A stretch of DNA of 64,000 nucleotides from NCBI GenBank assembly GCA_049296855.1, contig JBAQTF010000012.1:1939-65938 (forward strand), written 5' to 3'. Made by a program: the position numbers and the translations under genes. The notes under the pieces were generated by a model. It saw only the letters and a program-made list of their open reading frames with translations. It was not told where the DNA came from and ran no database searches. Source of the DNA: Minisyncoccia bacterium. GTDB taxonomy: Bacteria; Patescibacteriota; Minisyncoccia; Phycocordibacterales; DATDWN01. Positions 1,203-58,950 of this stretch are shown one piece after another. Position 1 is the first letter of the stretch. Each line of letters opens with the position of its first letter.

Positions 1203-2848
1203 TAATTGACTATCCAATAACTCAGACAAGCTTTATTTGTAACTGGATTATTGCTCGATTTTATAGTGAAACTTGTACCGGATGTTCTGGCGTTTATAAC
1301 ATAATTTCGTCCTGTGCCTGTATTGCAAGTAATACCAAGTCTTGTGCCAAGAGATGAGTCTTCCATAATAAATATCTGACTATTAGCTGTTACTGCAGTC
1401 GTGTTAACTACTAGAGTACTACCTCCTGTCGGCATAGCAACACTACCAGCTGGAGCAGAGCCACAAGTAGAAGGCGTTGTAGTAGAATTACAATTTGAAA
1501 CTGTACCTAAGTTTGTGATATTTAACAGTCCTTTCACTGTAGTTGTAGCATTTGTCCGTCCAATGTTAATTGATGTTGCTGTTGTTGAACCAAAAGAAAG
1601 AAGTCCTGCAGAATCTGTATCAAAGCCTAATCCATTCGCTAGAACATTTATGAAATTTCCGAAGATGTCACCATTTACATGAAGAGTTGCTGTGGGCGTA
1701 CTTGTTGCGATTCCAACCTTACTATTTATTATCATGTTTTGGCCAGAACGACCGAATGTCATAGTTGTTGCATTCATTGTGCCAAAATTTAGTATTCCAC
1801 TTGTCACAGAATCAAACAGTGATCCAACTGGCATAAAGAAATTTCCAGAAGTAAGCATAGTATCTGAACCGTCGTCAGAAAGAAGAGCATTACCTATAGT
1901 TGTACTTGCTGTAAACTTTACCAGTCTGTTAATTATTCCTGAACCTGTTATTGATTGATTACTACTTGTATAACTTATTATTACTATTCCTGATCCACCT
2001 GATCCACCAGTATTAGTGTTGCCACCTCCACCTCCACCTCCAGTATTTGGATCTCCATTACCAGGAGTTGAACCACTGTCACTTCCATTTCCTCCACCTC
2101 CTATTCCACCTGAACCGGGTGTAATAGCATCTGTCGCGCCACCCCCTCCGCCAGCATAAGTTACATTAGTTCCAGAAATTGAATTTGCGAGGCCAGCTCC
2201 TCCGTCACTTCCATCTGTATGTCCACCAGCCAGATCTTCTCCTGCTGTAGAAGCACCTCCACCCCCCGCACCTCCATTTCCTGACCCACCCCATATTTGA
2301 TTACCCCCTCTATTTCCTTGTCCTCCATTTCCTGACCCACCATTTGAATCATCTCCAAGCCCAGCCGCGCCACCACCAGAACCACCATCTGCGCCAGTAG
2401 CTGTCGTTGTAGAAAAACTTGAGCCACCTCCTCCACCACCTGTAGAAGTAATAGTACTAAATATTGAATCACCCCCATTAGTTCCTTTACTTGTATATAC
2501 TGTTGCACCACCTCCACCACTGCCAACTGTTACAGAATACGACTGACTTGTAATACTAAAATTAGAATCATATTGATAACCACCCGCACCACCTCCACCA
2601 CCATTATATTGATTAGTTGTACCTCCTCCACCACCACCTCCACCAGCTACAACAAGAGCTTGAACAGTACCCCCACCAGTACCAGTGCAATCTAAAGTTC
2701 CACTGGTTGTAAAAGTGTGAATTGTATTTCCACCCGATTGGATAATAGTTCCTCCAGTACAATCTGATGAGAATGCAAAAACAGTTAAAGGAGAGGCTGT
2801 CAAAGTGATTGCTAAGAATAATGATAAGAATGTTACGATTTTTTTCAT
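1202..2848 (-). CDS. Glycine-rich secreted protein (signal peptide, long Gly/Ser/Thr low-complexity region, structured C-terminal domain)
   Basis: N-terminal signal peptide MKKIVTFLSLFLAITLTASPLTVFA. Poly-Gly tracts include GGGGGGGG and GSGNGGQGNRGGN. The C-terminal roughly 200 aa are non-repetitive. No family recognised. Confidence 0.6.
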   Translation of the reverse strand: MKKIVTFLSLFLAITLTASPLTVFAFSSDCTGGTIIQSGGNTIHTFTTSGTLDCTGTGGGTVQALVVAGGGGGGGGTTNQYNGGGGGAGGYQYDSNFSITSQSYSVTVGSGGGGATVYTSKGTNGGDSIFSTITSTGGGGGGSSFSTTTATGADGGSGGGAAGLGDDSNGGSGNGGQGNRGGNQIWGGSGNGGAGGGGASTAGEDLAGGHTDGSDGGAGLANSISGTNVTYAGGGGGATDAITPGSGGIGGGGNGSDSGSTPGNGDPNTGGGGGGGNTNTGGSGGSGIVIISYTSSNQSITGSGIINRLVKFTASTTIGNALLSDDGSDTMLTSGNFFMPVGSLFDSVTSGILNFGTMNATTMTFGRSGQNMIINSKVGIATSTPTATLHVNGDIFGNFINVLANGLGFDTDSAGLLSFGSTTATSINIGRTNATTTVKGLLNITNLGTVSNCNSTTTPSTCGSAPAGSVAMPTGGSTLVVNTTAVTANSQIFIMEDSSLGTRLGITCNTGTGRNYVINARTSGTSFTIKSSNNPVTNKACLSYWIVN

Positions 2849-2941: not shown

Positions 2942-3619
2942 TCAATTTTGTTTCCATAACTCCCAAATAAATTCATATTGATAAACAGGATTGTGAGAAT
3001 TTTTCAGTTTATCTTTGATTTCTTGCATTTCCTTTTTTGCTTCTGGAAAGAAATTATGGAACTGAACAAGAACATAGTTAATATTTTTCATATATCCATA
3101 GTCAATGAGTCTGTTTAATAGAGCATACTCTCCACCTTCAATATTTATTTTAATCAAGTCAATCTTCCGTATATTGTTTTGCTTAATGTATTCAATTACA
3201 TCAACTAATTTAATATCAATTTTCTCTTCACTAATTTTTTTTATTGTTGATGAGCCGTCTCCACCTACACTTATTTTTTTAGTCTCAGTTTTGTCAGATA
3301 AGCCGAATTTATTTACTTTTATTTTTTTATTTTTTTCGAACCTGTGCTGTATTTCTACAGAAAAATTTGGTACTGGCTCAAATATATGGATGTTTGAATT
3401 ATACTTTCCATAAATATTACTTGCCCACTGTCCTTCATATCCTCCAACATCAAAAACTACCGAATTTTCATCAAGAAAAGATAATTTATTTGTGGAATCA
3501 CCGATGTCTTTTCTGAATAATGTTTTCTGGTCTCCAAAGGGGGATATATAAACTTTGTTACTAACATAATTAAATAGACTACCGATTTTTGAGAGTATTT
3601 TACTTAGCGAATTTCTCAT
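2942..3619 (-). CDS. FkbM-family methyltransferase
   Basis: VFDVGGYEGQW ... IKINIEGGEY motifs typical of the FkbM methyltransferase family. Confidence 0.7.
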   Translation of the reverse strand: MRNSLSKILSKIGSLFNYVSNKVYISPFGDQKTLFRKDIGDSTNKLSFLDENSVVFDVGGYEGQWASNIYGKYNSNIHIFEPVPNFSVEIQHRFEKNKKIKVNKFGLSDKTETKKISVGGDGSSTIKKISEEKIDIKLVDVIEYIKQNNIRKIDLIKINIEGGEYALLNRLIDYGYMKNINYVLVQFHNFFPEAKKEMQEIKDKLKNSHNPVYQYEFIWELWKQN

Positions 3620-3622
3620 GAT

Positions 3623-4540
3623 TTATTTTATTAGTTTTCTTAAAAAAGCTTTAATTTTATATACAATTTTACTATTTTTTTCGAGCTTAATTATTCTACT
3701 CGTATTCTCAGAAATTTTTTCACCTCTTAATCTAATCGGTTTAGTTTTTAAATTATCAAACCATGTAAATCTTCCTTCCTTACTGAGCATATAGTCAATA
3801 TCCTCATCAATAATTTTATCTAGGAACGGCATAACTGCTATTAAGGCTGACATAGTCACATTTCCCTTTTTGTTTTCTCTTACCCAATGTGAATTAATTC
3901 CTGCTCTATGTAGGTAGTATGTATTTTCTAGAGTAATCATTTTTGAGCCACTAAATAGTTGTCTAATTCCAAATGTCCAAGAATCCAATGTTTGGTTAAC
4001 AATTGTCGGCTCAAAATATGTTCCTGCTTTTTTCCAGCTTGATTTGGTAAATAGATAATTTCCAGTAGGACAAGGAGTGATATGTCCTGCCAAACAATTC
4101 TGTGCGGTTATCTCCTTTTGGAATAACCATTTTTGTGTAATATTATTTATATCGTTCTTAAAGAACCATAATTCACTAAAGGCAACAGCATCAGCATTAT
4201 TTAGAAGTAAATACTCTTTAAGTTTTTTAATGCTTCCTGAAATAAGGATATTATCTGAATCTAGTGTAAAAAGTAAATCATTTTTTGAAATCTGTATGGC
4301 AGTGTTTCTCCCAGCTGCTGCTGTGCCTTTATTGATTTGATGTCTAAAAGAGATAACTTGAGAGTACTTCTTCTTTAGCCTTGTAATTATTTTTGAAGTA
4401 TCATCAGTCGACGCATCATCTACTATGATAACTTCATCACCATCCTCAAAATTCCCATTAAAAATTGAGTCAACAGATTCTTCTATTGTATCGTCACAGT
4501 TATAAGCAGGAATAATAAAACTTATGTTTGATTTATTCAT
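3623..4540 (-). CDS. Glycosyltransferase family 2
   Basis: N-terminus ISFIIPAYNCDDTIEESVDSI...VIIVDDASTDDT...LDSDN is a GT2 Rossmann-like fold with DxD. Confidence 0.8.
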   Translation of the reverse strand: MNKSNISFIIPAYNCDDTIEESVDSIFNGNFEDGDEVIIVDDASTDDTSKIITRLKKKYSQVISFRHQINKGTAAAGRNTAIQISKNDLLFTLDSDNILISGSIKKLKEYLLLNNADAVAFSELWFFKNDINNITQKWLFQKEITAQNCLAGHITPCPTGNYLFTKSSWKKAGTYFEPTIVNQTLDSWTFGIRQLFSGSKMITLENTYYLHRAGINSHWVRENKKGNVTMSALIAVMPFLDKIIDEDIDYMLSKEGRFTWFDNLKTKPIRLRGEKISENTSRIIKLEKNSKIVYKIKAFLRKLIK

Positions 4541-5453
4541 TTTTTTTAAATACCACTATAATACTATGTCCAATGATATGTTCAGAAATGGATGATATCC
4601 CCAAAAAAGCAAGACGATTAGCCATATTTTTTAGTATAAAAGAAAAAGGTCCAAGCTTTTCATTTAATTTTTTCTCAACCACTTTTTCAGCGATTTCGTT
4701 CGCAAATCCCAGATGATATTTTTGTAGGGGTTCAAGATAAATTGATTCTAGCTTCATATTGAAATTATACTGTAATTTAATTAGTGAGTTCATATTCCAC
4801 ATGCCCATATGATGTGGGGGCATATTTAAAGTTGCATCATTTGATTTCATTATTAAGCAGTCATTGTTCGGGATACTTATAACCATTTTACCTCCGGGTT
4901 TTAGGACTGATAAAGAAGAATTGATGAAATTTTTTATATCGTATACATGCTCCATTACCTGAAAAGAACAAACCGTATCGTAGTAGTTTTTTTTATTTTT
5001 AGAAAACTGCTCTATTGTTTCAGGGTAGACAGACAGATCTTTTTCTTTACACTCTTTTACTGCATCAGAGTTTAATTCCAGTCCTTCAACTACTGCTCCA
5101 TTTTCTTTCATTTTTTTAATAAAAGTTCCCCGAGCGCAACCGATCTCTAAGACTTTGTCATTTTTTTTCACTAAGCCGTAAGCTATTTCATGCTCCCATT
5201 TCCAATCCATATAGTACCAAGGGAATTTCTCTAGTTTTTGATAGAAAGAGTCATCACCGGAAATATTTAAAGGATAATAAAATCTGTATCCAGTATCTAG
5301 ACACTTGTATATAGAGACAATTTTTATATTTTTAAAAAACTTTGAAACGTCCATATCCAGCTCTTTTTTATAGCGTTCGATTATGTACGAAGAGGGGATT
5401 TCTCTTTCAGGAACGACATTATTTGATCCTGTAACTGGACTTTTTATTTCCAT
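4533..5453 (-). CDS. Class I SAM-dependent methyltransferase
   Basis: VLEIGCARGTF ... LKPGGKMVISIPN motifs. Confidence 0.7.
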   Translation of the reverse strand: MEIKSPVTGSNNVVPEREIPSSYIIERYKKELDMDVSKFFKNIKIVSIYKCLDTGYRFYYPLNISGDDSFYQKLEKFPWYYMDWKWEHEIAYGLVKKNDKVLEIGCARGTFIKKMKENGAVVEGLELNSDAVKECKEKDLSVYPETIEQFSKNKKNYYDTVCSFQVMEHVYDIKNFINSSLSVLKPGGKMVISIPNNDCLIMKSNDATLNMPPHHMGMWNMNSLIKLQYNFNMKLESIYLEPLQKYHLGFANEIAEKVVEKKLNEKLGPFSFILKNMANRLAFLGISSISEHIIGHSIIVVFKKNE

Positions 5454-6325
5454 ATTTTTTTTATGACATTAGCTCCATTTTTTATAGGCAACTCAAACGA
5501 TTTTGGTGTAATTTTTATTATCTTTTCTAAAGTAAGAGTTCGAATTTTCCCACCGAAAACATGACGATAAGTGTAAAAGTCAGCCAAAACATCCCTTTTA
5601 ATTTTCTTTGGGTGTACTAATGGGAAGACCATTTTGTGAGATTTCATATTAGAAAACTCCGTAATCTCTGTTGTGTGAGTTGCATCTTCTCCAGATCCGA
5701 TATTTGAGACCAGGTTTACATTCGGGATAACGGCGAGCCCACCTCGTCTTTTAACTGAATTGAGCCATTGTTTATCCCAGATGTGTTTTCTTTGTTCAGG
5801 ACTTATCATATTATGGTCATAGTATTTCCAAGCTCTCGCCCATGTTGCCCAACCCCAATTATGAGTATATTCTGAAAAATAGTAAGAACCATTTCCTCTT
5901 TTTTTACCATCTTGAAAATTATTTCCACTTATGTGCATTATTTTCGGATTATCTTTATACTTTTCCAAAAGTTCCTGACAGAAATAGTAAAAGCTAGGGT
6001 GGGGAAGGCAATCATCGTCCATTATAATACCTCGATCTACGTGCTCAAACATCCATTTTATTCCTGTAACAGATCCTGTTCCACAACCTAAATTTTCTTT
6101 TTGAAACAACGTTTTGACTTTGCAAGGCCAATCGACTCTATTTGCTATTTCTCGAGCCTTTTCGCATTTTGCAACATCATCTGGCCTGTCTTTTCTTGGA
6201 CCGTCAGCACAGATAAAAAATTGTTTTGGTTTCATTTTCCTCACCACCTCAAAAGATTTGTCAGATATTTCTGGACGGTTAAAAATCATAAGAAGTATTG
6301 GTGTATCGAGTTGTTTATTGTCCAT
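5444..6325 (-). CDS. Nucleotide-diphospho-sugar transferase (HlpA / GNT-I-like glycosyltransferase)
   Basis: PILLMIFNRPE...FICADGPR...DDDCLPHPSFYYFC pattern seen in HlpA-like GT-A glycosyltransferases. Confidence 0.55.
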   Translation of the reverse strand: MDNKQLDTPILLMIFNRPEISDKSFEVVRKMKPKQFFICADGPRKDRPDDVAKCEKAREIANRVDWPCKVKTLFQKENLGCGTGSVTGIKWMFEHVDRGIIMDDDCLPHPSFYYFCQELLEKYKDNPKIMHISGNNFQDGKKRGNGSYYFSEYTHNWGWATWARAWKYYDHNMISPEQRKHIWDKQWLNSVKRRGGLAVIPNVNLVSNIGSGEDATHTTEITEFSNMKSHKMVFPLVHPKKIKRDVLADFYTYRHVFGGKIRTLTLEKIIKITPKSFELPIKNGANVIKKIWK

Positions 6326-12296: not shown

Positions 12297-12325
12297 TAAA
12301 AAAGCGTGGGACTTGCGTCCCACGC
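12297..12325 (-). terminator. Intrinsic terminator at the 3' end of the GC-rich HD gene
   Basis: On the minus strand: GCGTGGGAC-GCAA-GTCCCACGC followed by TTTTTT. It sits 26 nt downstream of the HD gene stop. Confidence 0.75.
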
Positions 12326-12350
12326 CTAATCTGTTTCCGATTGTTCGCCT

Positions 12351-13049
12351 CTACTCTTCCGGGAAGGGGTAAAGTCCGACGCTTTGCATCTCCTCGACGC
12401 ACCGCGACATGAAGTCGCGATAGTAGTCGAAGTATGGCTTACCCATCTCCTTGGCTTTCGGGAGGCGCAACATGTCCTCCCACTCAAGGTTGAACCAGAT
12501 CGCGTCGTAACACGACTGGATATTTCGGAACGTCGTTTGCGGATGTTTCCTACCGAGGTATTTCGGGATGCATGCCGGAATGTTGGGTCGGTGTTGTCCA
12601 CCCCGAATGAGGTTGAGTGCTCCCATGTTCGACAATCGATCTGCATCCTTGAGGGTCACTGTGACAGGGTTGTCCGCGTCACTGTTGCGCATTGAATGCT
12701 CCATCAATGCTTCACGCATGAACATGAGCTCGTCGTTTCTGAACTCCCCAACAGGCAGTAGCCCAAAGTATCGGTCCAACACTTCGCTTGTTTCACTGCC
12801 GAAGTGACGGTCGGTCGAGTGCATGAGTCCAACGACCCAGGTCATCTCGCCGACTCGCGGGGTTTCCGCGATGAGTGCGCTGGTCTGAGCGACCCGAAGG
12901 TCGTGGTCCCAGCCGTGCCCCATGGTTGTCTTTCCTGACGCGACGATGTCCTCGTGAGTCTTCTTCACCGCATCGTATAGAGCTTTGTATTTCGCTCTCA
13001 TTACCACGAATGTGTTGTACAGATACTGCTTTTTAGTCTCTGTTGCCAT
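12351..13049 (-). CDS. HD-domain protein (predicted metal-dependent phosphohydrolase), encoded in a GC-rich island
   Basis: H...HD...H...D pattern (GHGWDHDLRV, GLMHSTDRH, LKDADRL). Local GC is about 55-60% against about 35% in flanking genes. Purine-rich Shine-Dalgarno sequence AAAGGGGGG upstream. Confidence 0.7.
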   Translation of the reverse strand: MATETKKQYLYNTFVVMRAKYKALYDAVKKTHEDIVASGKTTMGHGWDHDLRVAQTSALIAETPRVGEMTWVVGLMHSTDRHFGSETSEVLDRYFGLLPVGEFRNDELMFMREALMEHSMRNSDADNPVTVTLKDADRLSNMGALNLIRGGQHRPNIPACIPKYLGRKHPQTTFRNIQSCYDAIWFNLEWEDMLRLPKAKEMGKPYFDYYRDFMSRCVEEMQSVGLYPFPEE

Positions 13050-13132
13050 CTCGACCCCCCTTTGAAAAAGGTTTTTACCTAGGAAAAGTTCTGTCTGGAC
13101 TCTATCACATTATTATAAAAAAGTCAAATATA

Positions 13133-37368: not shown

Positions 37369-37376
37369 TATAAAAA

Positions 37377-37414
37377 GGGCTGGGTACGTTGTTTGGAAAC
37401 GTACGAACCAGCCC
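37377..37414 (-). terminator. Hairpin terminator at the 3' end of GC-island 2 (minus-strand orientation)
   Basis: GGGCTGGGTACGT...ACGTACGAACCAGCCC stem (7+6 bp), followed on the minus strand by TTTTT. Confidence 0.6.
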
Positions 37415-37434
37415 TTGTGGTGGACGACGCTCGG

Positions 37435-37656
37435 TCATGACGCCTTCCTCTCCTGCGTTTTGTGACGAATGATGAGGCGCGCAACCTCAGTCACCATTTC
37501 TGACTTCTCGGGTTCTTTGATGAACCCCGCGGATTCGACCGCTGCATTCAAGATCTTGTTGTATCTTGGAGCAAAGAGTCGACCCTCAGTGGTCAGGACT
37601 TTTTCACATTCCCTGATCACTTTCAAAGCGATTTCACCAGCGTTCAAAATAATCAC
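37435..37656 (-). CDS. Small hypothetical protein (about 70 aa) in GC-island 2
   Basis: GC-rich ORF with an AGGAGGTG Shine-Dalgarno sequence. The track start at 37656 is a GTG that overlaps that sequence. A TTG at 37647 gives 8-nt spacing. No family recognised. Confidence 0.45.
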   Translation of the reverse strand: MIILNAGEIALKVIRECEKVLTTEGRLFAPRYNKILNAAVESAGFIKEPEKSEMVTEVARLIIRHKTQERKAS

Positions 37657-37720
37657 CTCCTTTTACTCTGGCTAGAGTTTACCATTCTAAATTTTTTTGT
37701 AAAGAGCTTATAAAAAGGAA

Positions 37721-37743
37721 GGCTCGTCGTATTACGACGAGCC
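37721..37743 (-). terminator. Perfect 10-bp hairpin between the two island-2 genes (possible internal terminator/attenuator)
   Basis: GGCTCGTCGT-ATT-ACGACGAGCC, followed on the minus strand by TTCCTTTTTAT. A second small hairpin CCTAGC-GATG-GCTAGG is adjacent. Confidence 0.5.
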
Positions 37744-37759
37744 TTTGACCTAGCGATGG

Positions 37760-37966
37760 CTAGGTAACTTCTTGTTCAGGGCCCTTGCGAGAAGCATTTC
37801 TCCTCGCGTTTGCTGCCCGAGAGAGGGTTGACATCGCCTGGTATACGTTTTCGTTTCTCCCAGCGTATCTCTTTACTACCTCGAGCATGAGGTTCCTATA
37901 GTCTCTGTCTGGGTACCTTTGACGCAAGTCTCGGAGCTCGTTCAACATCCGGTCTGTAATGACCAT
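37760..37966 (-). CDS. Small hypothetical protein (68 aa) in GC-island 2
   Basis: ATG start preceded by AAGGAGGG at 6-nt spacing. GC-rich. No family recognised. Arg-rich C-terminus. Confidence 0.5.
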   Translation of the reverse strand: MVITDRMLNELRDLRQRYPDRDYRNLMLEVVKRYAGRNENVYQAMSTLSRAANARRNASRKGPEQEVT

Positions 37967-37991
37967 AGCGGAGCCCTCCTTCTAGGGAATA

Positions 37992-38021
37992 ATTATACTA
38001 CATTAACAGGGCTTTTGTCAA
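37992..38021 (-). promoter_or_regulatory. Consensus sigma70 promoter TTGACA-N18-TATAAT driving the island-2 genes
   Basis: Minus-strand TTGACA at 38021-38016 and TATAAT at 37997-37992, about 25 nt upstream of the ribosome-binding site. Confidence 0.6.
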
Positions 38022-46820: not shown

Positions 46821-46866
46821 ACACCCAACACAAACTCTTCCCGGAGGTTTGTTTTGTGTTGGGTGT
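46821..46866 (-). terminator. Hairpin terminator (14-bp stem) at the 3' end of the island-4 gene
   Basis: ACACCCAACACAAA ... TTTGTGTTGGGTGT. On the minus strand it is followed by TTTTATT. It overlaps the rplI 3' flank. Confidence 0.6.
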
Positions 46867-47066
46867 CACGTTCTTGCTTTTAGGTGAGATGGGGTTGAGA
46901 GTTCTCGAAGTCTTCGACATTTCTCACAACCCTTGTCCGTCGGTTCACCCGGGCAAGGTTTTCCGTGAGGACAGTTGTGTTTTATGGCATTTGTCCCGTG
47001 GCTTTTTGTGTTGCGGACTTGAGATCCGCAACCCAAACATGTGACGTAGGTCTCAGGTCTTCCCAT
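46866..47066 (-). CDS. Small Cys-rich zinc-ribbon-like protein (66 aa) in GC-island 4
   Basis: MGRPETYVTCLGCGS...HNCPHGKPC...KGCEKCRR carries two CxxC pairs plus C/H residues. The ATG is preceded by AAGGAG at 7-nt spacing. GC-rich. Confidence 0.5.
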   Translation of the reverse strand: MGRPETYVTCLGCGSQVRNTKSHGTNAIKHNCPHGKPCPGEPTDKGCEKCRRLRELSTPSHLKART

Positions 47067-47090
47067 GGCTGATCTCCTTTTCTCAAAACA

Positions 47091-47112
47091 AAATAGCACT
47101 GAAGTGCTATTT
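47091..47112 (-). terminator. Terminator hairpin downstream of rpmA
   Basis: AAATAGCAC-TGAA-GTGCTATTT. On the minus strand it is followed by a T-rich tract. Confidence 0.6.
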
Positions 47113-47137
47113 TGTAAAATCATGATTCCAATTATTT

Positions 47138-50252: not shown

Positions 50253-50513
50253 ATGTTTTACACATATATATTAAAAAGCAATAAAAATGGTAGATTATAT
50301 ACTGGTAGTACAAATGATTTACGGAAACGTCTTAAGCTCCATAATGACGGTAAGTCGAATTATACAAAAAAACATACACCGTATGAACTTATATATTATG
50401 AAGCTTGTTTAAATGATCATGATGCTAGAGTAAAAGAGATATATTTGAAAAGTGGTATGGGTAAGAGGTATATTAATAATCGCTTGAAGAGTTTCCTAAC
50501 TCTAACGGGATGA
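50253..50513 (+). CDS. GIY-YIG nuclease-domain protein (UPF0213/YhbQ-like)
   Basis: FYTYILKS...GRLYTGSTNDLRKRLKLHN shows the GIY..YIG motifs plus the conserved Arg. An 86-aa stand-alone domain. Confidence 0.75.
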   Translation: MFYTYILKSNKNGRLYTGSTNDLRKRLKLHNDGKSNYTKKHTPYELIYYEACLNDHDARVKEIYLKSGMGKRYINNRLKSFLTLTG

Positions 50514-51798: not shown

Positions 51799-53043
51799 AT
51801 GCTTAAGCTAATAAAACAATCAATCAAAGCTCTCTCTGCGAATAAAGCTCGTACCTTACTTACCATGCTCGGTATTGTCATAGGTATTGCAACTGTAGTT
51901 ATGGTTCTCTCGGCTGGTGCAGGTTTCCGAAGTCTTATTGATTCGCAAATAGCGACGCTAGGGAGTAACACTCTTTTTATTCAAGTGCGCATTCCACCAA
52001 CAACTAAAAATCGTGCAGCTAACTCCCAAGGTCCAGGAGCTGCTTTTTCTGGTGTTACAATATCAAGTTTTAAACAGCGAGATTTAGACGATATAAAAAA
52101 ACTAGAAAACGTCGTGGGGGCGTATGGAATTGTCTCTGGACAAGCATCGGCTAGTTATAGAGCAAATAAAAAAACAGCTATTTATTATGGAGCGGGTGCA
52201 GAAAGATTTAGTATTGATAAAACAAAACTGTCTTCTGGAAGGTTCTACTCACAAAGTGAAGATAACTCAGGTAGCCAAGTCGTTATTTTGGGAAGTAAAA
52301 TAGCTACCGATTTATTTGGTCAAGACGACCCGATTGGTAAGCTTCTTCGTATCGGCACATTGAACTTTCAAGTTATTGGTATACATGAACCACAAGGAGC
52401 AATAGGTGAAAACGATAATTTATTGTTTATTCCACTTATCACCGCACAGAAAAAACTATTAGGTGTAGACTATTTTTCGATTGGGGTCGTTGCTTTACAA
52501 GATATAAATGCTGGAGATAGTACAGCCGAGCAGATAAAAATACTAATGCGTAGTAACCACTCTATTACAAATCCTGACAAAGATGATTTTACTGTTAAAA
52601 CTCAAGCTGAGGCACTTGAAACATTCAACACAATTTTCAGTGGCTTAACATATTTGCTTATCGCAATCGCAGCTATTTCTCTAGTTGTTGGGGGAGTTGG
52701 AATTATGAATATTATGTATGTTGTTGTTACAGAACGTACTGCCGAAATAGGTTTGAAAAAAGCAGTTGGTGCAAAAGAATCTGATATTTTAAATGAATTT
52801 TTGCTTGAAGCCATTCTAGTCACTGTTTTCGGGGGTATTATAGGTATCGTTTTCGGCTCATTACTTGGTTACATCGTTTCACTTATTGCTGCTTCACAAA
52901 ACTTAGCTTGGACTTTCATAGTCCCGATTTACGCAATGGTTTTGGCGTTTGGAGTTTCGGCAGCTATTGGTATTTTCTTTGGAGTTTTTCCAGCTCGTTC
53001 GGCTTCGAAAATGGATCCTATCGAAGCATTGAGGTATGAATAA
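51799..53043 (+). CDS. ABC transporter permease (FtsX/MacB-like), paralogue
   Basis: Same architecture as the preceding permease (GVGIMNIMYVVVTERTAEIGLKKAVGA). Confidence 0.85.
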   Translation: MLKLIKQSIKALSANKARTLLTMLGIVIGIATVVMVLSAGAGFRSLIDSQIATLGSNTLFIQVRIPPTTKNRAANSQGPGAAFSGVTISSFKQRDLDDIKKLENVVGAYGIVSGQASASYRANKKTAIYYGAGAERFSIDKTKLSSGRFYSQSEDNSGSQVVILGSKIATDLFGQDDPIGKLLRIGTLNFQVIGIHEPQGAIGENDNLLFIPLITAQKKLLGVDYFSIGVVALQDINAGDSTAEQIKILMRSNHSITNPDKDDFTVKTQAEALETFNTIFSGLTYLLIAIAAISLVVGGVGIMNIMYVVVTERTAEIGLKKAVGAKESDILNEFLLEAILVTVFGGIIGIVFGSLLGYIVSLIAASQNLAWTFIVPIYAMVLAFGVSAAIGIFFGVFPARSASKMDPIEALRYE

Positions 53044-53051
53044 AAAAGAGA

Positions 53052-53069
53052 CCACCCGGTTAAGGGTGG
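53052..53069. terminator. Hairpin CCACCC-GGTTAA-GGGTGG shared by the permease operon (+) and the island-5 gene (-)
   Basis: A-run upstream and T-rich downstream on the plus strand. T-run on the minus strand. It overlaps the last codons of the island-5 ORF. Confidence 0.6.
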
Positions 53070-53335
53070 CCTTTGTCTGATGGTTTTTTAAACCACTTGC
53101 TATTGGTGCGAAGATCTTCCACGACCGCCGAGTCCATTCCGAGCAGTTCGTAGGCGGTTCGTGCTTCTGCGTCCCCGATCTCTTTTTTTGTCCAACAGTA
53201 GTCGATTGCTCCTAGAACACAAGCTTGAGCCGATCTGAGCCGACCTTCTTCAAGGAAGATGTCTACACAGAGTTTACCTTCCTCGTTGAGGTATACCTCG
53301 GCCAGCTGTTTAATGGTCGCTTTATCTGCATTCAT
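53060..53335 (-). CDS. Hypothetical protein (91 aa) in GC-island 5
   Basis: ATG preceded by GGAGGTG. GC about 50%. No family recognised (LCVDIFLEEGRLRSAQACVLGAIDYCW). Confidence 0.5.
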   Translation of the reverse strand: MNADKATIKQLAEVYLNEEGKLCVDIFLEEGRLRSAQACVLGAIDYCWTKKEIGDAEARTAYELLGMDSAVVEDLRTNSKWFKKPSDKGHP

Positions 53336-53353
53336 AAACCCACCTCCATTAGT

Positions 53354-53382
53354 GTTATATCTTATATTAACATGATTGTCAA
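53354..53382 (-). promoter_or_regulatory. Near-consensus promoter TTGACA-N17-TATAAC for the island-5 gene
   Basis: Minus-strand TTGACA at 53382-53377 and TATAAC at 53359-53354, about 20 nt upstream of the ribosome-binding site. Confidence 0.55.
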
Positions 53383-53424
53383 ATACAGCTAAACATTTTA
53401 GTAGTTTTGTGATATGTTTTCATT

Positions 53425-54333
53425 ATGAACCAAGAGAGTATACAGCATACAATCATACTTTTTTATAAATACGTAGAAATAGATAACCCAGAAAAGCTGA
53501 GAGATAGACAGCGTTCTCTGTGTGAAAAACTCGGACTAAAAGGACGGGTGATTGTTGCAAAAGAGGGAATTAACGCGACACTCGAAGGGACGACAAAGAA
53601 CATAAATGAATATCTAAAAGAATATCTTTCCGATTTGCGATTTTCAGATACTCACATAAAGAAAAGTACTGGTGATGGAGATTCATTCCCAAGACTTTCT
53701 GTCAAAGTGCGAAAAGAAATAGTCACTCTTGGTTTGGAAGATGATATCAATCCAAATGAAATCACAGGAAAACATCTCAAACCTGAGGAGTTGAAACAGT
53801 GGTATAAGTCCGGCAAAGATTTTGTCATCGTTGATATGAGAAATGATTATGAGTTCAAAGTCGGTCGCTTTAAAAATTCAATAATGCCGAGATTGCAGAA
53901 TTTTAGAGATGTCCCAAAAGCTCTAGGAGACGTTGAAAAACTTCGTGACAAAACCGTCCTAACTGTTTGTACGGGCGGAGTACGTTGCGAAAAAGCTTCA
54001 GGACTTCTTGTTCGAGAAGGATTTAAAGATGTTTACCAGCTCGACGGTGGTATTGTCAGCTATATGGAAAAATTTCCAGCACAAGAGTTCCAAGGTTCTC
54101 TCTACGTTTTTGACAAAAGAATCATCATGGATTTTGATTCTGTTAATAATCTTGGAGATAAACACGTCGTAATAGGGAAGTGTGACAAGTGTGGATTATC
54201 GAACGAACGATATGTAAACTGCAAACGACCAGAGTGTAACAAACACTTCATCTGTTGCGAATCTTGTTCTGAACCCGACGGTCGTTCCTTCTGCTCCATT
54301 GAGTGTCGCGAAAAAATGATGATAACTTCATAA
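53425..54333 (+). CDS. trhO: tRNA uridine(34) hydroxylase / rhodanese-domain protein TrhO (YceA, UPF0176)
   Basis: UPF0176 N-domain, rhodanese domain with CTGGVRCEKAS, and a Cys-rich C-terminal tail. Confidence 0.75.
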   Translation: MNQESIQHTIILFYKYVEIDNPEKLRDRQRSLCEKLGLKGRVIVAKEGINATLEGTTKNINEYLKEYLSDLRFSDTHIKKSTGDGDSFPRLSVKVRKEIVTLGLEDDINPNEITGKHLKPEELKQWYKSGKDFVIVDMRNDYEFKVGRFKNSIMPRLQNFRDVPKALGDVEKLRDKTVLTVCTGGVRCEKASGLLVREGFKDVYQLDGGIVSYMEKFPAQEFQGSLYVFDKRIIMDFDSVNNLGDKHVVIGKCDKCGLSNERYVNCKRPECNKHFICCESCSEPDGRSFCSIECREKMMITS

Positions 54334-54358: not shown

Positions 54359-54850
54359 ATGCAAATAAAATCACAATTCACAGACCCTGATGGGAAAACC
54401 GCCTACGTGACGTATCAAGACGCAGATTCCTTTGACCATCTTTTAGATAAGAAAGTTACCCAAGCATATGGAGTTTGTCTGCTTAATGATAAAATAGTCA
54501 TTGTCTATAGTGGAAAAAGAAAGCATTGGATTTTGCCAGGCGGAAGTATCGAAGAAGGAGAAACATTTGAAGATTGTTTAAAACGGGAGATTAAAGAGGA
54601 ATCAAATATGAAAGTAATTTCTTTTACACCGATCGGTTATCAAGAGGTGCATTTTGACGGAAGAATATTCAATCAACTTCGTTACGTTTGTATAGTAGAA
54701 CCATACGGAGATTTTGTCTCAGACCCTGATGGAAGTATAACAGAAATAAAATTTATTGATCATAAGGACTACAGACAATATTTTGACTGGGGTGATATCG
54801 GTGAAAGAATCATAAAAAGAGCGTTGGAAATTAAGGATAGGGATAAATGA
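54359..54850 (+). CDS. NUDIX hydrolase
   Basis: Nudix box GGSIEEGETFEDCLKREIKEESN. Confidence 0.8.
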   Translation: MQIKSQFTDPDGKTAYVTYQDADSFDHLLDKKVTQAYGVCLLNDKIVIVYSGKRKHWILPGGSIEEGETFEDCLKREIKEESNMKVISFTPIGYQEVHFDGRIFNQLRYVCIVEPYGDFVSDPDGSITEIKFIDHKDYRQYFDWGDIGERIIKRALEIKDRDK

Positions 54851-54884
54851 TAAAAGCATATTTATTTTTTAATATAAATAAATT

Positions 54885-56201
54885 TTAAAATATTCTGTGA
54901 ATAAACTTTATATCTTTTGGGTCAATAAGGTTTTTAGGTAAATCATTTATTTCATGCCATTTCCATTCTTTGAATTTATCATGCTCTATTAATTTAGGCT
55001 CTTCATTAATTTCACACTGAATAAAATAAACTTTATCTCCACTTTTCACCCCATCTTTCTGACCAATCACTCTTAAAAAGTTAACATTACTGACACCTAT
55101 TTCCTCAAGTATTTCGCGTTTAATTGATTCAATCATAGTTTCACCTTCAATTGCGCGACCACCAGGGTATGTCCATACAGGAGCTCCTTTTCTATATTCA
55201 CGTAAGCCCATAAGTATTTTATTATCTTTTTTGATAAGAGCAAAAAAACAAAGTTGATCATAATTAATTTTAAATTTTGAAATGAGATATTTTATGTTTA
55301 GTTGGTTCGAAAGCATTTCTATACTGGGCAATCTATCTGGTCTTTTTCTCTCATAACCGTAGAGTGTTCCGAATTTAGATTGTAAGATACCAATATAATA
55401 TTTCAAACTAGTTTTAAAAAGGTTTGCTGTTTTGTGAGAATCATTGAAATTAAGGAAGATTTTTCCACTCTGGTTGTCTATGTTTTCATTGTAAAAGATG
55501 TCCGTCCAATTTTTCATATAGGCTCTTTTATGCACCCCTTTTTCATTACTGTTTTTCTGTCTAACGTTCATTGTCGCAAAATGAAAATGTTCGACAAACG
55601 CAGTTTTACAATCAATAATTATATAATTAGAATCCCATAATTTGAGAGATAAATTTCCGTCACCATAATAAAATGGGTATTTATCTTCTTCGCAGAATCC
55701 TATGTCAATAAGAGCTGATTTTAAATACATGCCGTGGTTGATTGATAGCTTATGTCCCAAAGTTTGACGAACATAGTACATTTTCTCGTGTGGGAGATTT
55801 CTCCAATAAAATGCTATTCCACCAATTTTTTTACCAGAATTTATCTGATTTTCAAACAAATAATAAGCATTCATTATTGATTCAGGAACTATAAGGCAAT
55901 CATCGGAAATCATGACCACATATTTACCATGGGTTGCTTGAAAAGCGATATTCATATAGTATCCCCAGTTTCTTTTTTCTATTTCCACCCCTTTCCACAA
56001 ACCATTATTATGTTGAATTATAGTGATAATATCTTTTTGAGAAGTCAGCCAAGAGATACTTCCGTCACTAGATCCGCCATCAATCACGATGATTTCGTAC
56101 GGTAGTGATATACCATTTTCTCGTAAGGTTTTTATCGTTTTTTTAAGGAATGGTTTTCTATTATAACTCCCTAAAATGATGGAAATTATTGGCTTAGACA
56201 T
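54885..56201 (-). CDS. Bifunctional protein: N-terminal GT2 glycosyltransferase fused to C-terminal NUDIX hydrolase domain
   Basis: N-terminus ISIILGSYNRKPFLKKTI...VIDGGSSDGS (GT2). C-terminus PGGRAIEGETMIESIKREILEEIGV (Nudix box). Confidence 0.7.
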   Translation of the reverse strand: MSKPIISIILGSYNRKPFLKKTIKTLRENGISLPYEIIVIDGGSSDGSISWLTSQKDIITIIQHNNGLWKGVEIEKRNWGYYMNIAFQATHGKYVVMISDDCLIVPESIMNAYYLFENQINSGKKIGGIAFYWRNLPHEKMYYVRQTLGHKLSINHGMYLKSALIDIGFCEEDKYPFYYGDGNLSLKLWDSNYIIIDCKTAFVEHFHFATMNVRQKNSNEKGVHKRAYMKNWTDIFYNENIDNQSGKIFLNFNDSHKTANLFKTSLKYYIGILQSKFGTLYGYERKRPDRLPSIEMLSNQLNIKYLISKFKINYDQLCFFALIKKDNKILMGLREYRKGAPVWTYPGGRAIEGETMIESIKREILEEIGVSNVNFLRVIGQKDGVKSGDKVYFIQCEINEEPKLIEHDKFKEWKWHEINDLPKNLIDPKDIKFIHRIF

Positions 56202-56293
56202 AAGTTTTATATTAGGGCAAGAATTGTACCACTATAACACGATATTGATATTTTTCAATATCTGTTGTATTCTATTATTAGAAAGGGGGTCCT

Positions 56294-57106
56294 ATGAGAC
56301 TCATTGAAAAATTAGATACTTGTAGGTGTTCTCCTGATGAAGTTGTCGTGCTAGTTCGCCACGGCGTTGATCTTCCTGTTCTTTCTAAAGAACTTAATCA
56401 ACCTCTCACTGAGGAAACAAAATCCGATATAAGGATTCTCGGAGGTGAGATGATCGAGCTCTGTGGAAGACTTGCAGTTAAGAACGTTTACATTTGTCAT
56501 AGTAATCGTCTTAGAGCAATTCAGACAGGAATAATTATGACAGAAGCATTTCATTCTGCGAATATTCCTGTAGAGATAGTTGAGGCCGTTGGGATTCGAG
56601 AAATTTATCAAGGGGATTTTCTTATCAAAGATCATTCACAAGGATCTGAGTATAAGCCACTTGTAGATGCATGGCGGGTGTGGCAACGAAAACTTGATGA
56701 ATCTGAACTACTCTATAGATTCGGGGATCCAATCCTAGATGAGGATGGAAAAGCTCAACATCCTGAATTAACGGGTTGGTTTAAAGAATTTGGTGAGCAT
56801 CAAGGAGAATTCTCTCTACGTCTATATCTGCTGTTGAAAGAAATGTTTGATGATAATAAGGAACACCTACAAATTATCATCGGACATCAAGCCTCTTCAT
56901 CTAGGATTCAGCGAATCTTTGATGCTGTATCTAAGATACAGAGTCCTGACGAGTTCGTACCTGGTGAATTTGTTAGATTTATAGAAAAAAGAGGTTCACG
57001 AATACCTATCGATCCAGCATGTGGAGTGGTTCTAAAAAAGCCAGATCGAGGTCTTGTCACGCGGGTACTTCAAAAGGAGATTGACTATCTAAAAAGCATT
57101 GTATAG
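56294..57106 (+). CDS. Histidine phosphatase superfamily protein (phosphoglycerate-mutase-like)
   Basis: VVLVRHGV (RHG catalytic motif) ... IIGHQAS. Confidence 0.65.
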   Translation: MRLIEKLDTCRCSPDEVVVLVRHGVDLPVLSKELNQPLTEETKSDIRILGGEMIELCGRLAVKNVYICHSNRLRAIQTGIIMTEAFHSANIPVEIVEAVGIREIYQGDFLIKDHSQGSEYKPLVDAWRVWQRKLDESELLYRFGDPILDEDGKAQHPELTGWFKEFGEHQGEFSLRLYLLLKEMFDDNKEHLQIIIGHQASSSRIQRIFDAVSKIQSPDEFVPGEFVRFIEKRGSRIPIDPACGVVLKKPDRGLVTRVLQKEIDYLKSIV

Positions 57107-57128
57107 GGTCCCGTGTAAAAGCGGGACT
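57107..57128 (+). terminator. Hairpin GGTCCCG-TGTAAAAG-CGGGACT downstream of the phosphatase gene
   Basis: Read directly from the sequence. It overlaps the TTG-initiated 5' extension of the next ORF, which argues for that ORF starting at 57150. Confidence 0.5.
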
Positions 57129-57149
57129 CTATTTGTTATACTTAAAACC

Positions 57150-57674
57150 ATGGAACAATACAGACTTACAGAAATAAAAGAAAAAGATGGAGTTAAGGTT
57201 ACCTATATCTGGCACCCAGGAGTAATACCCGAAGGTATTCCTGTACAACAAGTTTACGGTTTTTGTAACACTGTAGATAATCTCGTCGTACTTGTTCGCG
57301 AAAAAGGAGATGACAGGTTTACTCCACCTGGCGGTGGTACAGAAAAAAATGAAACTGCTCTAGAGACTTTATACAGGGAATTTAATGAGGAAGTCCAATT
57401 CATTCCAGAAGACGTCAAGTTATTGGGTTCATTAGAGGTAATAAACCCTGGGGCTGAAGATGAAATTCAAAAACATAATTTACAGGTTAGATTTGTTTGT
57501 AGAATTGGAAAAATGGAAAACTTTATTCCATTGCATGATAATGAAACTGAGCAAAGAATCTTTATCTATTATAAGGATCTTCCTGAATACATAGGATTTA
57601 TAAAAAAATACAGTAGCGGCATGATTCAGTACAATATGTATTGTGATTATGTTGATGGCAAAATTGACCTATGA
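57150..57674 (+). CDS. NUDIX hydrolase
   Basis: Nudix box PGGGTEKNETALETLYREFNEEV. Start moved to the first ATG (MEQYRL). The track start at 57099 is a TTG inside the hairpin. Confidence 0.7.
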   Translation: MEQYRLTEIKEKDGVKVTYIWHPGVIPEGIPVQQVYGFCNTVDNLVVLVREKGDDRFTPPGGGTEKNETALETLYREFNEEVQFIPEDVKLLGSLEVINPGAEDEIQKHNLQVRFVCRIGKMENFIPLHDNETEQRIFIYYKDLPEYIGFIKKYSSGMIQYNMYCDYVDGKIDL

Positions 57675-58804
57675 AAATAGCTATTATTCAGCCACGTACG
57701 CCGTATCACGTAGCAGGGTCTGAGAAAGTATCGACAAAACATGCTGAGTTTCTCTCTAAACTTGGTCATCAGATATATTACTATACTTCGGTTGTAAAAA
57801 ATAAAGGCGAAACTTTTTTATTCAAAGAATTTATTGCTAAAAAATTACCGAATGTACATATTATAAGGTCGGATATTTCAGGATATATTGAGGGTTTATA
57901 TGATACTGTACCAGACAGTGATCATGTACGTTGGGTCACTGAATCCCTTGCGTTTAGTGAGAATATATACAATAGGCTTAAAGATAATAAGCCAGATGTT
58001 ATTCTTACTTATTATCTTCCAGATAGCTTGTTTAAGCCAACAGGTATTCCGAATGTAATCTATCTTTCTGGTTATCCTTCGAAGAAAATTTTATGGTATC
58101 AAGCGTTTATAAAATTTTGTCATGCAACTATTTCAATAAGTTCTATTGTTTCAGAAAAATGGAAAGAAGAAATTAGCCAGGTTACTTTAAATTATTCTTT
58201 GGGTACTGGTGTCGATCATCCAATTTATAAAGAAGATATTTTACCGAAAGCAAAGTCTAACTTAGTTTATGTCGGTAGGCTTATAGAAAGGAAGGGGGTC
58301 TTAACGCTATTAGAAGCTTTTATTAAAATTTTAGAAAACAATCATGACATACATCTTTGGATTGTCGGAGAGGGGGAATTTATAGATAGACTGAATCAGA
58401 TAATTATAAAGAATAATCTTAAGGATAAAATTACTCTTACTGGATTAGTAAAAAATCCATATGATTACTTTAAGATGGCTGATATTTGCGTTTTTCCTTC
58501 GCACAGAGGTGATGGTTTAATGGGGACGGTTTTGGAATCTATGGCGTCTGGCAAGCCAGTCATTTCTACAATCGAAAGTGGAAGTGAGGATGTAATTATA
58601 AATGGGGAAAATGGAGTCCTTGTGGAGCCGGAGAATATTGTAGAATTGGTAGATGCAATAGTCAATCTACTCCACGATAAACCTAAAAGAATAAGTATGG
58701 GTGAAAAAGCTAAGAAATTTATTATCGAAAATGTAATTTGGGAAAAAAATTGTAAGAAACTTGAAGGGATTCTTGAAGATGTGGTAAGAAAAACGACAAG
58801 ATAG
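57671..58804 (+). CDS. Glycosyltransferase family 4
   Basis: GT-B C-terminal domain with VGEGEF...FPSHRGDGLMGTVLESMASGKPVI. Confidence 0.8.
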   Translation: MKIAIIQPRTPYHVAGSEKVSTKHAEFLSKLGHQIYYYTSVVKNKGETFLFKEFIAKKLPNVHIIRSDISGYIEGLYDTVPDSDHVRWVTESLAFSENIYNRLKDNKPDVILTYYLPDSLFKPTGIPNVIYLSGYPSKKILWYQAFIKFCHATISISSIVSEKWKEEISQVTLNYSLGTGVDHPIYKEDILPKAKSNLVYVGRLIERKGVLTLLEAFIKILENNHDIHLWIVGEGEFIDRLNQIIIKNNLKDKITLTGLVKNPYDYFKMADICVFPSHRGDGLMGTVLESMASGKPVISTIESGSEDVIINGENGVLVEPENIVELVDAIVNLLHDKPKRISMGEKAKKFIIENVIWEKNCKKLEGILEDVVRKTTR

Positions 58805-58854
58805 TTTTTGTTAATTCCGGAAAGGCTATATTTTAATACTCGCTTTTTATTTTC

Positions 58855-58950
58855 ATCTGTTGCGAATCCTGTTCTGAATCAGATGGTAAATCTTTTTGTG
58901 GTGTTGAGTGTAAAGAAAAAATTGAAAAACTTGTCTCTGTGGATAACTAA
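58855..58950 (+). pseudogene. Remnant of a second trhO-like gene (C-terminal about 31 codons only)
   Basis: It translates to ICCESCSESDGKSFCGVECKEKIEKLVSVDN*, against the TrhO tail ICCESCSEPDGRSFCSIECREKMMITS* at 54250-54333. Nucleotide identity is high over the first roughly 45 nt. No upstream ORF or start. Confidence 0.6.

Follow-up and report, generated by a model that had tools for sequence, protein, structure and literature searches.

What a lone GC-rich gene is doing on the minus strand between two conserved plus-strand genes of a low-GC genome, and where it came from, is the question raised by a locus in a 64,000-nt stretch of DNA (the window, to which all positions refer unless a relative is named). 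The window was placed on contig JBAQUU010000002.1 of the metagenome-assembled genome (MAG) GCA_049297715.1, a Minisyncoccia member of the Candidate Phyla Radiation (CPR, Patescibacteria). The gene encodes a protein of 91 amino acids (aa) and forms, together with a predicted promoter, a Shine-Dalgarno (SD) sequence and a terminator hairpin that all lie on the minus strand, a cassette of approximately 340 bp (53044..53385), which extends from just after the stop codon of an ABC-transporter permease gene to just beyond the -35 hexamer of the cassette. These boundaries were placed to within ~10 nt by comparison with the empty junction of one relative (L027) and with other relatives; the right edge just beyond the -35 hexamer is the position suggested by the upstream regions of trhO, the gene on that side. 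We consider it likely that the cassette is a horizontally acquired single-gene transcription unit residing in a variable junction of this 36%-GC Minisyncoccia genome, and an accessory binding protein is proposed as its product.

Composition and coding capacity of the 91-aa gene

The coding sequence (53060..53335, minus strand), recognised from its open reading frame (ORF), its homologues and its AlphaFold model, specifies a five-helix protein belonging to an uncatalogued family of small proteins (alignment A1). The ORF has a G+C content (GC) of 0.486 and a G+C content at third codon positions (GC3) of 0.489, compared with a GC of 0.36 for the window and a mean GC3 of 0.30 (sd 0.07) for its genes. 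This GC3 is the second highest among the 64 ORFs of the window, the ribosomal-protein genes of which have a GC3 of ~0.30. A sequence-only reading of this DNA had proposed a GC island with a 91-aa ORF at this place, and both are confirmed by these values.

The ORF is also predicted by independent gene callers, and together with the homologues described below this indicates that it is a real gene. Its shortness, and a database annotation that goes no further than 'hypothetical protein', might suggest a spurious ORF in a GC-rich segment without coding function (either a remnant or a structured RNA). We give this explanation a negligible probability, given the full-length protein-level homologues on dozens of metagenomic contigs, the confident predicted fold, the independent gene calls and the lack of any Rfam match to the cassette region even at E <= 1. 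The junction is 100% identical in three independent assemblies over 7.5-14 kb, which shows that it is not an assembly chimera; all copies across samples are identical, and hence there are zero synonymous variants to compare.

The junction between permease 2 and trhO in relatives

The cassette is flanked on the left by the gene for the second of two MacB/FtsX-type ABC permeases (permease 2; 51799..53043) and on the right by trhO (53425..54333; UPF0176_N, Rhodanese and Rhodanese_C domains). The sequence-only reading had described a gene antisense to both flanks, and this arrangement holds, since both flanking genes are on the plus strand. Both belong to the backbone of the region, permease 2 with 78-80% identity in six relatives and trhO with 64-79% identity in relatives. 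A scan of the GTDB species representatives for TrhO yielded 19 loci, mostly from Minisyncoccia/Paceibacterota MAGs, with TrhO proteins 43-79% identical to that of the window. The order membrane-fusion protein, ABC ATPase, permease 1, permease 2, gap, trhO is kept in six relatives, with identities of 64-87%.

No homologue of the 91-aa protein was found in 12 TrhO-linked relatives, either by tblastn or with the family profile, and the gap that separates permease 2 from trhO varies in length and content from genome to genome. In the window it measures 381 bp and holds the 91-aa gene. In L027 it is an empty 51 bp between two genes on the same strand. The gap of L016 (389 bp, 5602-5990) contains a 74-aa hydrophobic ORF, membrane-like by inspection, behind a perfect TTGACA-N17-TATAAT promoter motif, and that of L014 (698 bp) contains, at 5510-5975, hicA (Pfam E 2.7e-13) with a partner that resembles HicB but does not reach the Pfam cutoff (E 0.0022). 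Longer gaps were found in L012 (928 bp, 5045-5972; a 187-aa ORF with a GC3 of 0.69), L009 (1042 bp, 4955-5996; two ORFs without Pfam match, GC ~0.48) and L011 (2769 bp, 3217-5985; a 350-aa hydrophobic ORF, acyltransferase-like by inspection only, followed by GC-rich ORFs without Pfam match). Apart from HicAB, the junction ORFs of the relatives (L009, L011, L012 and L016) are GC-rich, with a GC3 of 0.5-0.7, and those scanned have no Pfam match; several are located behind TTGACA-N17-TATAAT-like promoters. No protein similarity was detected among the cassettes of these junctions, that of the window included, and the only DNA common to different cassettes is a 57-bp terminator element that is 96% identical between L009 and L012. 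The 91-aa gene is thus foreign in composition and absent from the relatives, and the junction that holds it is variable.

The search for direct or inverted flanking repeats, target-site duplications and att sites at the cassette returned short chance matches only, and the Pfam listing contains no integrase or transposase within +/-10 kb of it. A different trace was found downstream, where a start-less relic of the 3' end of trhO (FICCESCSESDGKSFCGVECKEKIEKL) is present at 58846-58935 (plus strand). Its identity is 75% with the C-terminus of the resident TrhO and 79-81% with the C-termini of the L013 and L014 proteins, and at the DNA level a stretch of 27 nt reaches 96%; the relic brackets a Nudix/glycosyltransferase block of ~4.5 kb (54359-58804) that is absent in all relatives. 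The relic is likely the footprint of a recombination event that used homology in the flanks.

Transcription and translation signals of the cassette

The signals reported in the sequence-only reading, TTGACA-N17-TATAAC followed by GGAGGTG and ATG on the minus strand, are all present by direct reading. The -35 hexamer TTGACA (53377..53382), whose promoter is included in the list of sites matching the consensus at 11 of 12 positions, is separated by 17 nt from the -10 hexamer TATAAC (53354..53359), and the SD sequence GGAGGTG (53341..53347) lies 5 nt upstream of the ATG start codon (53335-53333). The -10 hexamer lacks the usually invariant final T, which is why a scan for consensus promoters missed the site. 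Over the whole window, five near-consensus sites (at least 11/12) were found versus 3.4 +/- 1.8 expected from simulations, so that such sites are not enriched as a class; the promoter was called because of its placement directly before an SD sequence and an ATG and because of its recurrence among the loci of the family. Only 18 nt separate the end of the -10 hexamer from the ATG, which would give a leader of ~12 nt with the SD sequence at its extreme 5' end.

At the other end of the gene, the TAA stop codon (53062-53060) lies in the loop of a hairpin, AGGCCACCC-TTAACC-GGGTGGTCT (53049..53072, minus strand; 9-bp stem and 6-nt loop). The 5' arm of its stem consists of the last three codons, GGC CAC CCT (Gly-His-Pro). 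The hairpin is followed by a U-rich tract (CTTTTTTATT / CUUUUUUAUU; 53039..53048, minus strand) that overlaps the stop codon of permease 2 (53041-53043). Folding confirmed the overlap of hairpin and stop codon that the sequence-only reading had noticed: on the minus strand the hairpin has a free energy of -16.5 kcal/mol (z -4.4; none of 200 shuffles as good), with one G.U pair in its stem and an uninterrupted U6 after it. Read on the plus strand, the same hairpin reaches -15.2 kcal/mol (z -2.2), has an A.C mismatch in place of the G.U pair, and is followed by an interrupted T tract. This asymmetry points to an element that is primarily the terminator of the 91-aa gene. The further claim, that it also serves the plus-strand permease operon, is plausible but weaker. 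The empty junction of L027 has no hairpin between permease 2 and trhO, and the terminator therefore probably arrived with the cassette.

The order of these elements supports the view that the cassette is a self-contained minus-strand transcription unit, convergent with permease 2 and divergent from trhO. Having probably brought its own terminator, the cassette would now insulate trhO from the permease operon, its terminator and divergent promoter parting two genes that are only 51 bp apart in L027.

An uncatalogued family of small helical proteins

A word-index homology search with the 91-aa protein returned the query alone, in line with the label of orphan given in the sequence-only reading. 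An exhaustive HMMER (phmmer) scan of 1.84 billion cluster representatives yielded 50 matches at E <= 0.001, of which ~40, with lengths of 73-102 aa, align over nearly their full length at 30-47% identity, and the label was dropped on account of these homologues. The family statistics given here are based on 41 members, which share the motif LAxKYLNExGQ..V...L....L..A...LLGAIDxxW....ISDxEA...Y..LGL........R; no stretch of alignments A1 and A2 was conserved enough for back-translation searching.

That the protein is unrecognised, as had been noted from the sequence, stands after comparison with curated libraries. Scans of NCBIfam with the 91-aa protein and the 41 members gave nothing above cutoff or recurrent, and scans of PHROGs nothing consistent; PADLOC gave no match for the 91-aa protein, which sets aside a known anti-phage defence component, and single stray matches for the members. 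A sequence-profile search of the PDB stopped at a best E of 0.08. The only Pfam entry matched by the 91-aa protein is DUF6197, itself a domain of unknown function, and the likeness is a weak local one (residues 10-62 to profile positions 11-65; 12.6 bits, E 0.17), far under the 24.6-bit gathering cutoff. Since only two of the 41 members match it (best E 0.0042), the other Pfam matches of the members being scattered and single, membership of DUF6197 was rejected. DUF6197 is mentioned in an actinophage genome announcement (PMC10586128). The family is absent from every curated library tried and is therefore uncatalogued; the 91-aa protein, unrecognised and absent from the 12 relatives, does not belong to a known housekeeping family native to the lineage.

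Another resemblance concerned Sel1-like repeat (SLR) proteins, since the tail of the 91-aa protein, ...LLGM..VEDLRTNSKWFKKPSDKGHP, is similar to a single Sel1 repeat. Among the phmmer matches are eight long SLR proteins, each hit in 4-8 stretches and only by the C-terminal tail ...KWFKKPSDKGHP, so that their high scores add up from a single short match counted once per repeat. When the window sequence was left out of the family profile, the score against these SLR proteins was <= 0.9 bits, none of the other family members exceeds 4 bits, and Sel1 was not matched in the Pfam scans of the 91-aa protein and the 41 members. Kinship with Sel1 repeats was rejected, the likeness being confined to the tail of one sequence, the final residues of which are encoded by the terminator stem and thus partly dictated by it.

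Structure prediction, proposed in the sequence-only reading as a check, was carried out with AlphaFold2 and gave five helices (residues 5-15, 18-30, 33-49, 55-64 and 69-82). The mean pLDDT (predicted local distance difference test) is 81 when only the one sequence is used and 83 when the alignment is added; the values range from 80 to 83 over the five models made with the alignment and from 42 to 81 over the single-sequence models. No signal peptide or hydrophobic segment was seen in the protein by inspection. The product is accordingly predicted to be a genuine folded, cytoplasmic five-helix protein. Foldseek found no significant neighbour of this fold, neither in the PDB (best E 2.6, template modelling (TM) score ~0.4; YlaN and homeodomains) nor among the viral folds of BFVD (best E 1.1).

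Two cysteines in ACVLGAIDYCW had been singled out in the sequence-only reading. The protein has three (C23, C39 and C47), two of which lie eight residues apart on helix 3, an arrangement that could suit a cysteine-dependent redox or metal-binding mini-protein. The pair is not conserved, however: a cysteine occupies the C47 column in only five of the 41 members, the column at 38/39 does not have cysteine among its common residues, and the number per member varies from 0 to 3, with many members having none. A redox or metal role is unlikely on these grounds, to the point that we regard it as very improbable.

Genomic context and behaviour of the family

All examined neighbourhoods of family members are chromosomal, with genes for ribosomal proteins, DnaK/GrpE/DnaJ, TrmD, S16, YchF, RelA and ParB, and the only integrase seen near a member is that of L030, at a distance of ~4.5 kb. 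No conserved partner gene was found across the compared family loci. A tail-to-tail adjacency to ABC transporters occurs in three of ~10 contexts; it involves differing transporter types, is not kept in the pair L028/L032 and was dismissed as coincidence. In L028 an ABC-2 transporter pair is inserted beside the family gene.

Wherever the contigs could be identified, the carriers are CPR/Patescibacteria. The glycoside hydrolase GH15 adjoining the L008 member falls, at >=90% identity, into a cluster with proteins of Paceibacteria, Nomurabacteria and Paceibacterota, and the YchF adjoining the L029 member shares 85% identity with that of the window genome itself. A fairly close relative thus has, at another site, a member that is 43% identical; the YchF locus of the window genome, considered as a second junction for comparison, has its synteny broken on the relevant side. 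The carrier loci mostly have a GC of 0.40-0.50 (0.58 in L035), with the family gene near or somewhat above the local value, and the window copy, at 0.49 in a genome of 0.36, looks imported from such a genome.

Promoters of the sigma-70 type matching at least 11 of 12 consensus positions are found 18-71 nt upstream of the gene in four of the 11 family loci (window, L028 with 12/12, L029 and L036), well above a chance expectation of ~0.003 per locus by rough arithmetic from the background rate in the window. Nearly all 11 loci have a strong SD sequence and a stable hairpin directly past the stop codon. Members of the family are typically monocistronic, self-contained units.

The family protein diverges several-fold faster than its neighbours. 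In the syntenic pair L028/L032, PIF1, TrmD, KhpA, S16 and RNase R are 72-88% identical and the family proteins 32%; in the pair L005/L008, GH15 is 88% and ABC-F 79% identical, and the family proteins 54%. Such divergence reflects either rapid evolution or xenologous replacement of alleles. In L028 (6001-6249) and L032 (2167-2388) the gene occupies the same slot, between PIF1 and, further along, TrmD-KhpA-S16-RNase R, and the L028 copy is GC-rich and has a 12/12 promoter, while the L032 copy is compositionally native, which suggests allele replacement at a fixed slot.

Possible function of the 91-aa protein

The conserved positions of the family are mostly in the hydrophobic core or at helix caps, and no conserved Cys/His/Ser catalytic pattern was seen. 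The family core is acidic, with a mean charge of -5.3 and a negative charge in 36 of the 41 members. A domain fusion in P0035 was considered as a functional lead and abandoned, its extension having no recognisable domain. The lack of a catalytic pattern and of a partner gene, the acidic core, the patchy distribution, the strong predicted expression signals and the fast divergence lead us to a tentative proposal: the protein would bind a partner, as an adaptor or an inhibitor, without enzymatic activity, and might have an accessory role, possibly related to conflict or symbiosis. With low confidence, this is preferred over an enzyme, a transporter or a subunit of the core machinery.

The main functional rival is a small DNA- or RNA-binding regulator, in which the last three helices would be similar to a helix-turn-helix (HTH) or homeodomain and the C-terminal tail would be basic. 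Several Foldseek matches in the PDB are indeed homeodomains or POU domains (~40-50 columns, root-mean-square deviation 4-5 A), the 'LG(L/I)..' motif resembles, by reading, the turn of an HTH, R76 is conserved in 80% of the members and 25 of the 41 have a tail of net positive charge. The fold matches are insignificant, however (E >= 2.6, probability <= 0.23, TM <= 0.43), no HTH family was matched in Pfam or NCBIfam by the 41 members, the core is acidic, and the basic tail of the window protein is largely dictated by the terminator stem. We consider nucleic-acid binding unlikely.

Origin of the cassette

As to the origin of the gene, acquisition from outside is the reading that we favour. The donor would be another CPR genome of higher GC, and the cassette would probably have been taken up as DNA and have recombined into the chromosome through the conserved flanks, a route proposed because neither mobility genes nor repeat ends were found. 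Horizontal gene transfer (HGT) into Patescibacteria comes mostly from other Patescibacteria, and competence and pilus genes are common in CPR bacteria, for which natural competence is assumed (PMC12455944). For HGT hotspots that lack mobile elements, recombination in the core genes on either side is the reported mode of evolution, above all in species capable of transformation (PMC5635113). The trhO relic at 58846-58935 is a local trace in keeping with such a route.

Alternatively, the gene could be ancestral and lost in the relatives, its high GC resulting from amino-acid composition or selection. The presence of the family in the same slot of two diverged genomes of another CPR lineage (L028 and L032) is in keeping with vertical descent, and an abundance of Ala, Gly, Glu, Asp and Arg residues in the protein increases the GC at first and second codon positions. 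GC3, however, is independent of amino-acid content and is elevated as well (0.49 versus 0.30). The gene is, moreover, missing from 12 of 12 relatives, one junction being empty and five having different cargo, and the 43%-identical member of the related Minisyncoccia L029 is at a different site. Ancestry followed by loss is in our view improbable.

A further alternative would be a phage or mobile-element moron, or an anti-defence gene (anti-restriction, anti-CRISPR-like or superinfection-exclusion), left by an element that has since vanished. The own promoter and terminator, the deviant GC and the insertion between conserved genes correspond to the definition of a moron (PMC2920897), the small and acidic helical protein diverges fast and is patchy in its distribution, and L014 has a HicAB module at the same junction. 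Set against this, no relatives of the family were found in 50,697 phage records, 72,556 plasmids and IMG/VR, the PHROGs, PADLOC and BFVD searches described above revealed nothing consistent, and the neighbourhoods examined consist of housekeeping or unannotated genes, with the sole integrase that of L030. We judge such a remnant to be unlikely, about as much so as the nucleic-acid-binding regulator.

Several observations weigh against the reading of the locus as an acquired transcription unit for an accessory binding protein. The closest homologue is only 47% identical and no donor was found among the homologues; gain and loss are not formally separable without a phylogeny of the relatives; and the family looks resident in some lineages, as the synteny of L028/L032 indicates, and is not always mobile. 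Transcription of the cassette is predicted from sequence signals alone, from a promoter whose -10 hexamer lacks the final T and in a window where near-consensus sites are unenriched. The functional proposal, lastly, is drawn from negatives (enzyme motifs, partner gene and fold match) and from analogy.

Comparison with known systems

Of the systems described in the literature, the phage moron (concept of Hendrix and Juhala, as summarised in PMC2920897) resembles the cassette in several ways: as far as the sequence can tell, the cassette has its own promoter and terminator; its GC and GC3 (0.486 and 0.489) deviate from those of the surroundings (0.36 and 0.30); it is inserted between genes that are adjacent in a relative (L027, 51 bp apart); and its site holds different units in different genomes, a toxin-antitoxin system being among the alternative cargo. 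The cassette differs from a moron by its location in a CPR chromosome, flanked by genes for an ABC transporter, TrhO, ribosomal proteins and tRNA synthetases, and it is consequently moron-like rather than a moron, as it does not reside in a phage or prophage.

The HGT hotspots free of mobile genetic elements described by Oliveira et al. (2017, PMC5635113) have conserved core flanks between which unrelated accessory genes turn over, as is the case here, where the interval holds the 91-aa gene alone, without integrase or transposase and with the trhO relic nearby. The present junction differs by its tiny scale (0.05-2.8 kb, mostly single small genes) and by a comparison made across species (flanks of 70-80% identity) instead of within one. 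The cassette appears to fit the cargo of such hotspots on the three features compared. The HGT islands of Patescibacteria (PMC12455944) are similar in that they were mostly acquired from other Patescibacteria and deviate in composition; they differ in being larger and having annotated functions, compared with a 340-bp islet with a single gene of an undescribed family.

An integron gene cassette was rejected, since the unit has its own promoter, its sole 3' palindrome is a canonical terminator and there is no integrase within +/-10 kb, no dedicated attC model having been run. Membership of a type II toxin-antitoxin system was rejected as well, because the family loci have no neighbour in common and the gene is monocistronic with its own terminator. 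Overall, the unit would be of a known kind, an accessory gene of small size gained horizontally at a hotspot of recombination; the protein family was previously uncatalogued.

On its own, the locus is a routine case of this kind, and a compact example of gene uptake in the streamlined genomes of the CPR without mobility genes. With ~40 members and a five-helix fold that lacks a detectable structural neighbour, the uncatalogued family is a candidate for the symbiosis or conflict 'dark matter' of the CPR. Should the pattern be general, a GC-rich monocistronic islet between syntenic core genes would be a signature for mining recently exchanged, and probably adaptive, genes. A bolder view, which we hold to be rather doubtful, is that such proteins are CPR-specific, highly expressed and fast-diversifying helical effectors, such as proteins that inhibit phage or host functions, and that they move, along with other GC-rich ORFs that are unrelated and lack a family match, as bare promoter-to-terminator cassettes ('chromosomal morons') through fixed intergenic hotspots in Minisyncoccia. 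If true, this would amount to a cassette-exchange economy driven by natural DNA uptake, without dedicated mobility genes. The significance of the locus would rise only if the family is a CPR conflict or symbiosis effector or if cassette exchange is a general mode of gene gain.

Neighbouring genes and other GC-rich islands of the window

A putative native promoter of trhO, TAAACA-N17 with a TG-extended TATGTT (53390..53418, plus strand), was recognised by reading, as the promoter scan did not list it. It would stand back to back with the cassette promoter, its -10 hexamer ending 6 nt before the ATG, and the trhO mRNA would be nearly leaderless. TG-extended -10 hexamers that end 6-11 nt before the ATG of trhO, without an SD sequence, are seen in the window (53390-53424), in L009 (5950-6000) and in L012 (5930-5976).

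Within the same transporter operon, an 86-aa GIY-YIG gene (50253-50513, plus strand; GC 0.30) is located between the genes for the ABC ATPase and permease 1, with a 4-nt overlap with the permease start. It is absent at that position in L009, L011, L012, L014, L016 and L027, and a 45%-identical copy adjoins a different ABC ATPase in L013. It has the appearance of an independent insertion, of low GC, that brought in a gene resembling those for homing endonucleases.

The layout of the cassette is also seen at other places in the window. At the strongest GC island (12300-13125) it comprises a 232-aa ORF (12351-13049, minus strand; GC 0.54, GC3 0.69) with a TTGACT-N17 promoter motif that has a TG-extended TAGAGT, an SD sequence GGGGGG and a terminator composed of a hairpin and a T-run. 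Two tandem GC-rich ORFs of 68 aa (37760-37966) and 73 aa (37435-37656) are found on the minus strand within 37375-38021, each with its own SD sequence and its own hairpin terminator; the former is preceded by a perfect 12/12 TTGACA-N18-TATAAT and the SD sequence GAAGGAGGG. None of these three ORFs has a Pfam match. The sequence-only reading had suggested looking for domains shared among the island proteins, and none are shared: no protein kinship was found among the compared island proteins or between them and the 91-aa protein.

A gene for a secreted-looking, glycine-rich protein of 548 aa (1202-2848, minus strand), with Pfam matches to Gly_rich_2 and to a K1-lyase C-terminal domain, appears as a 'GC island' because of a G+C content at second codon positions of 0.61 due to its Gly codons. 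Its GC3 is only 0.18, and the island reflects amino-acid bias and not a foreign origin. Finally, an 85-aa Cys-rich ORF (46866-47123, minus strand; GC 0.46) between the genes for L9 and L27 is a candidate coding sequence; it was left uncalled by the NCBI and Logan gene callers and has a weak tblastn match of 31% in L017.

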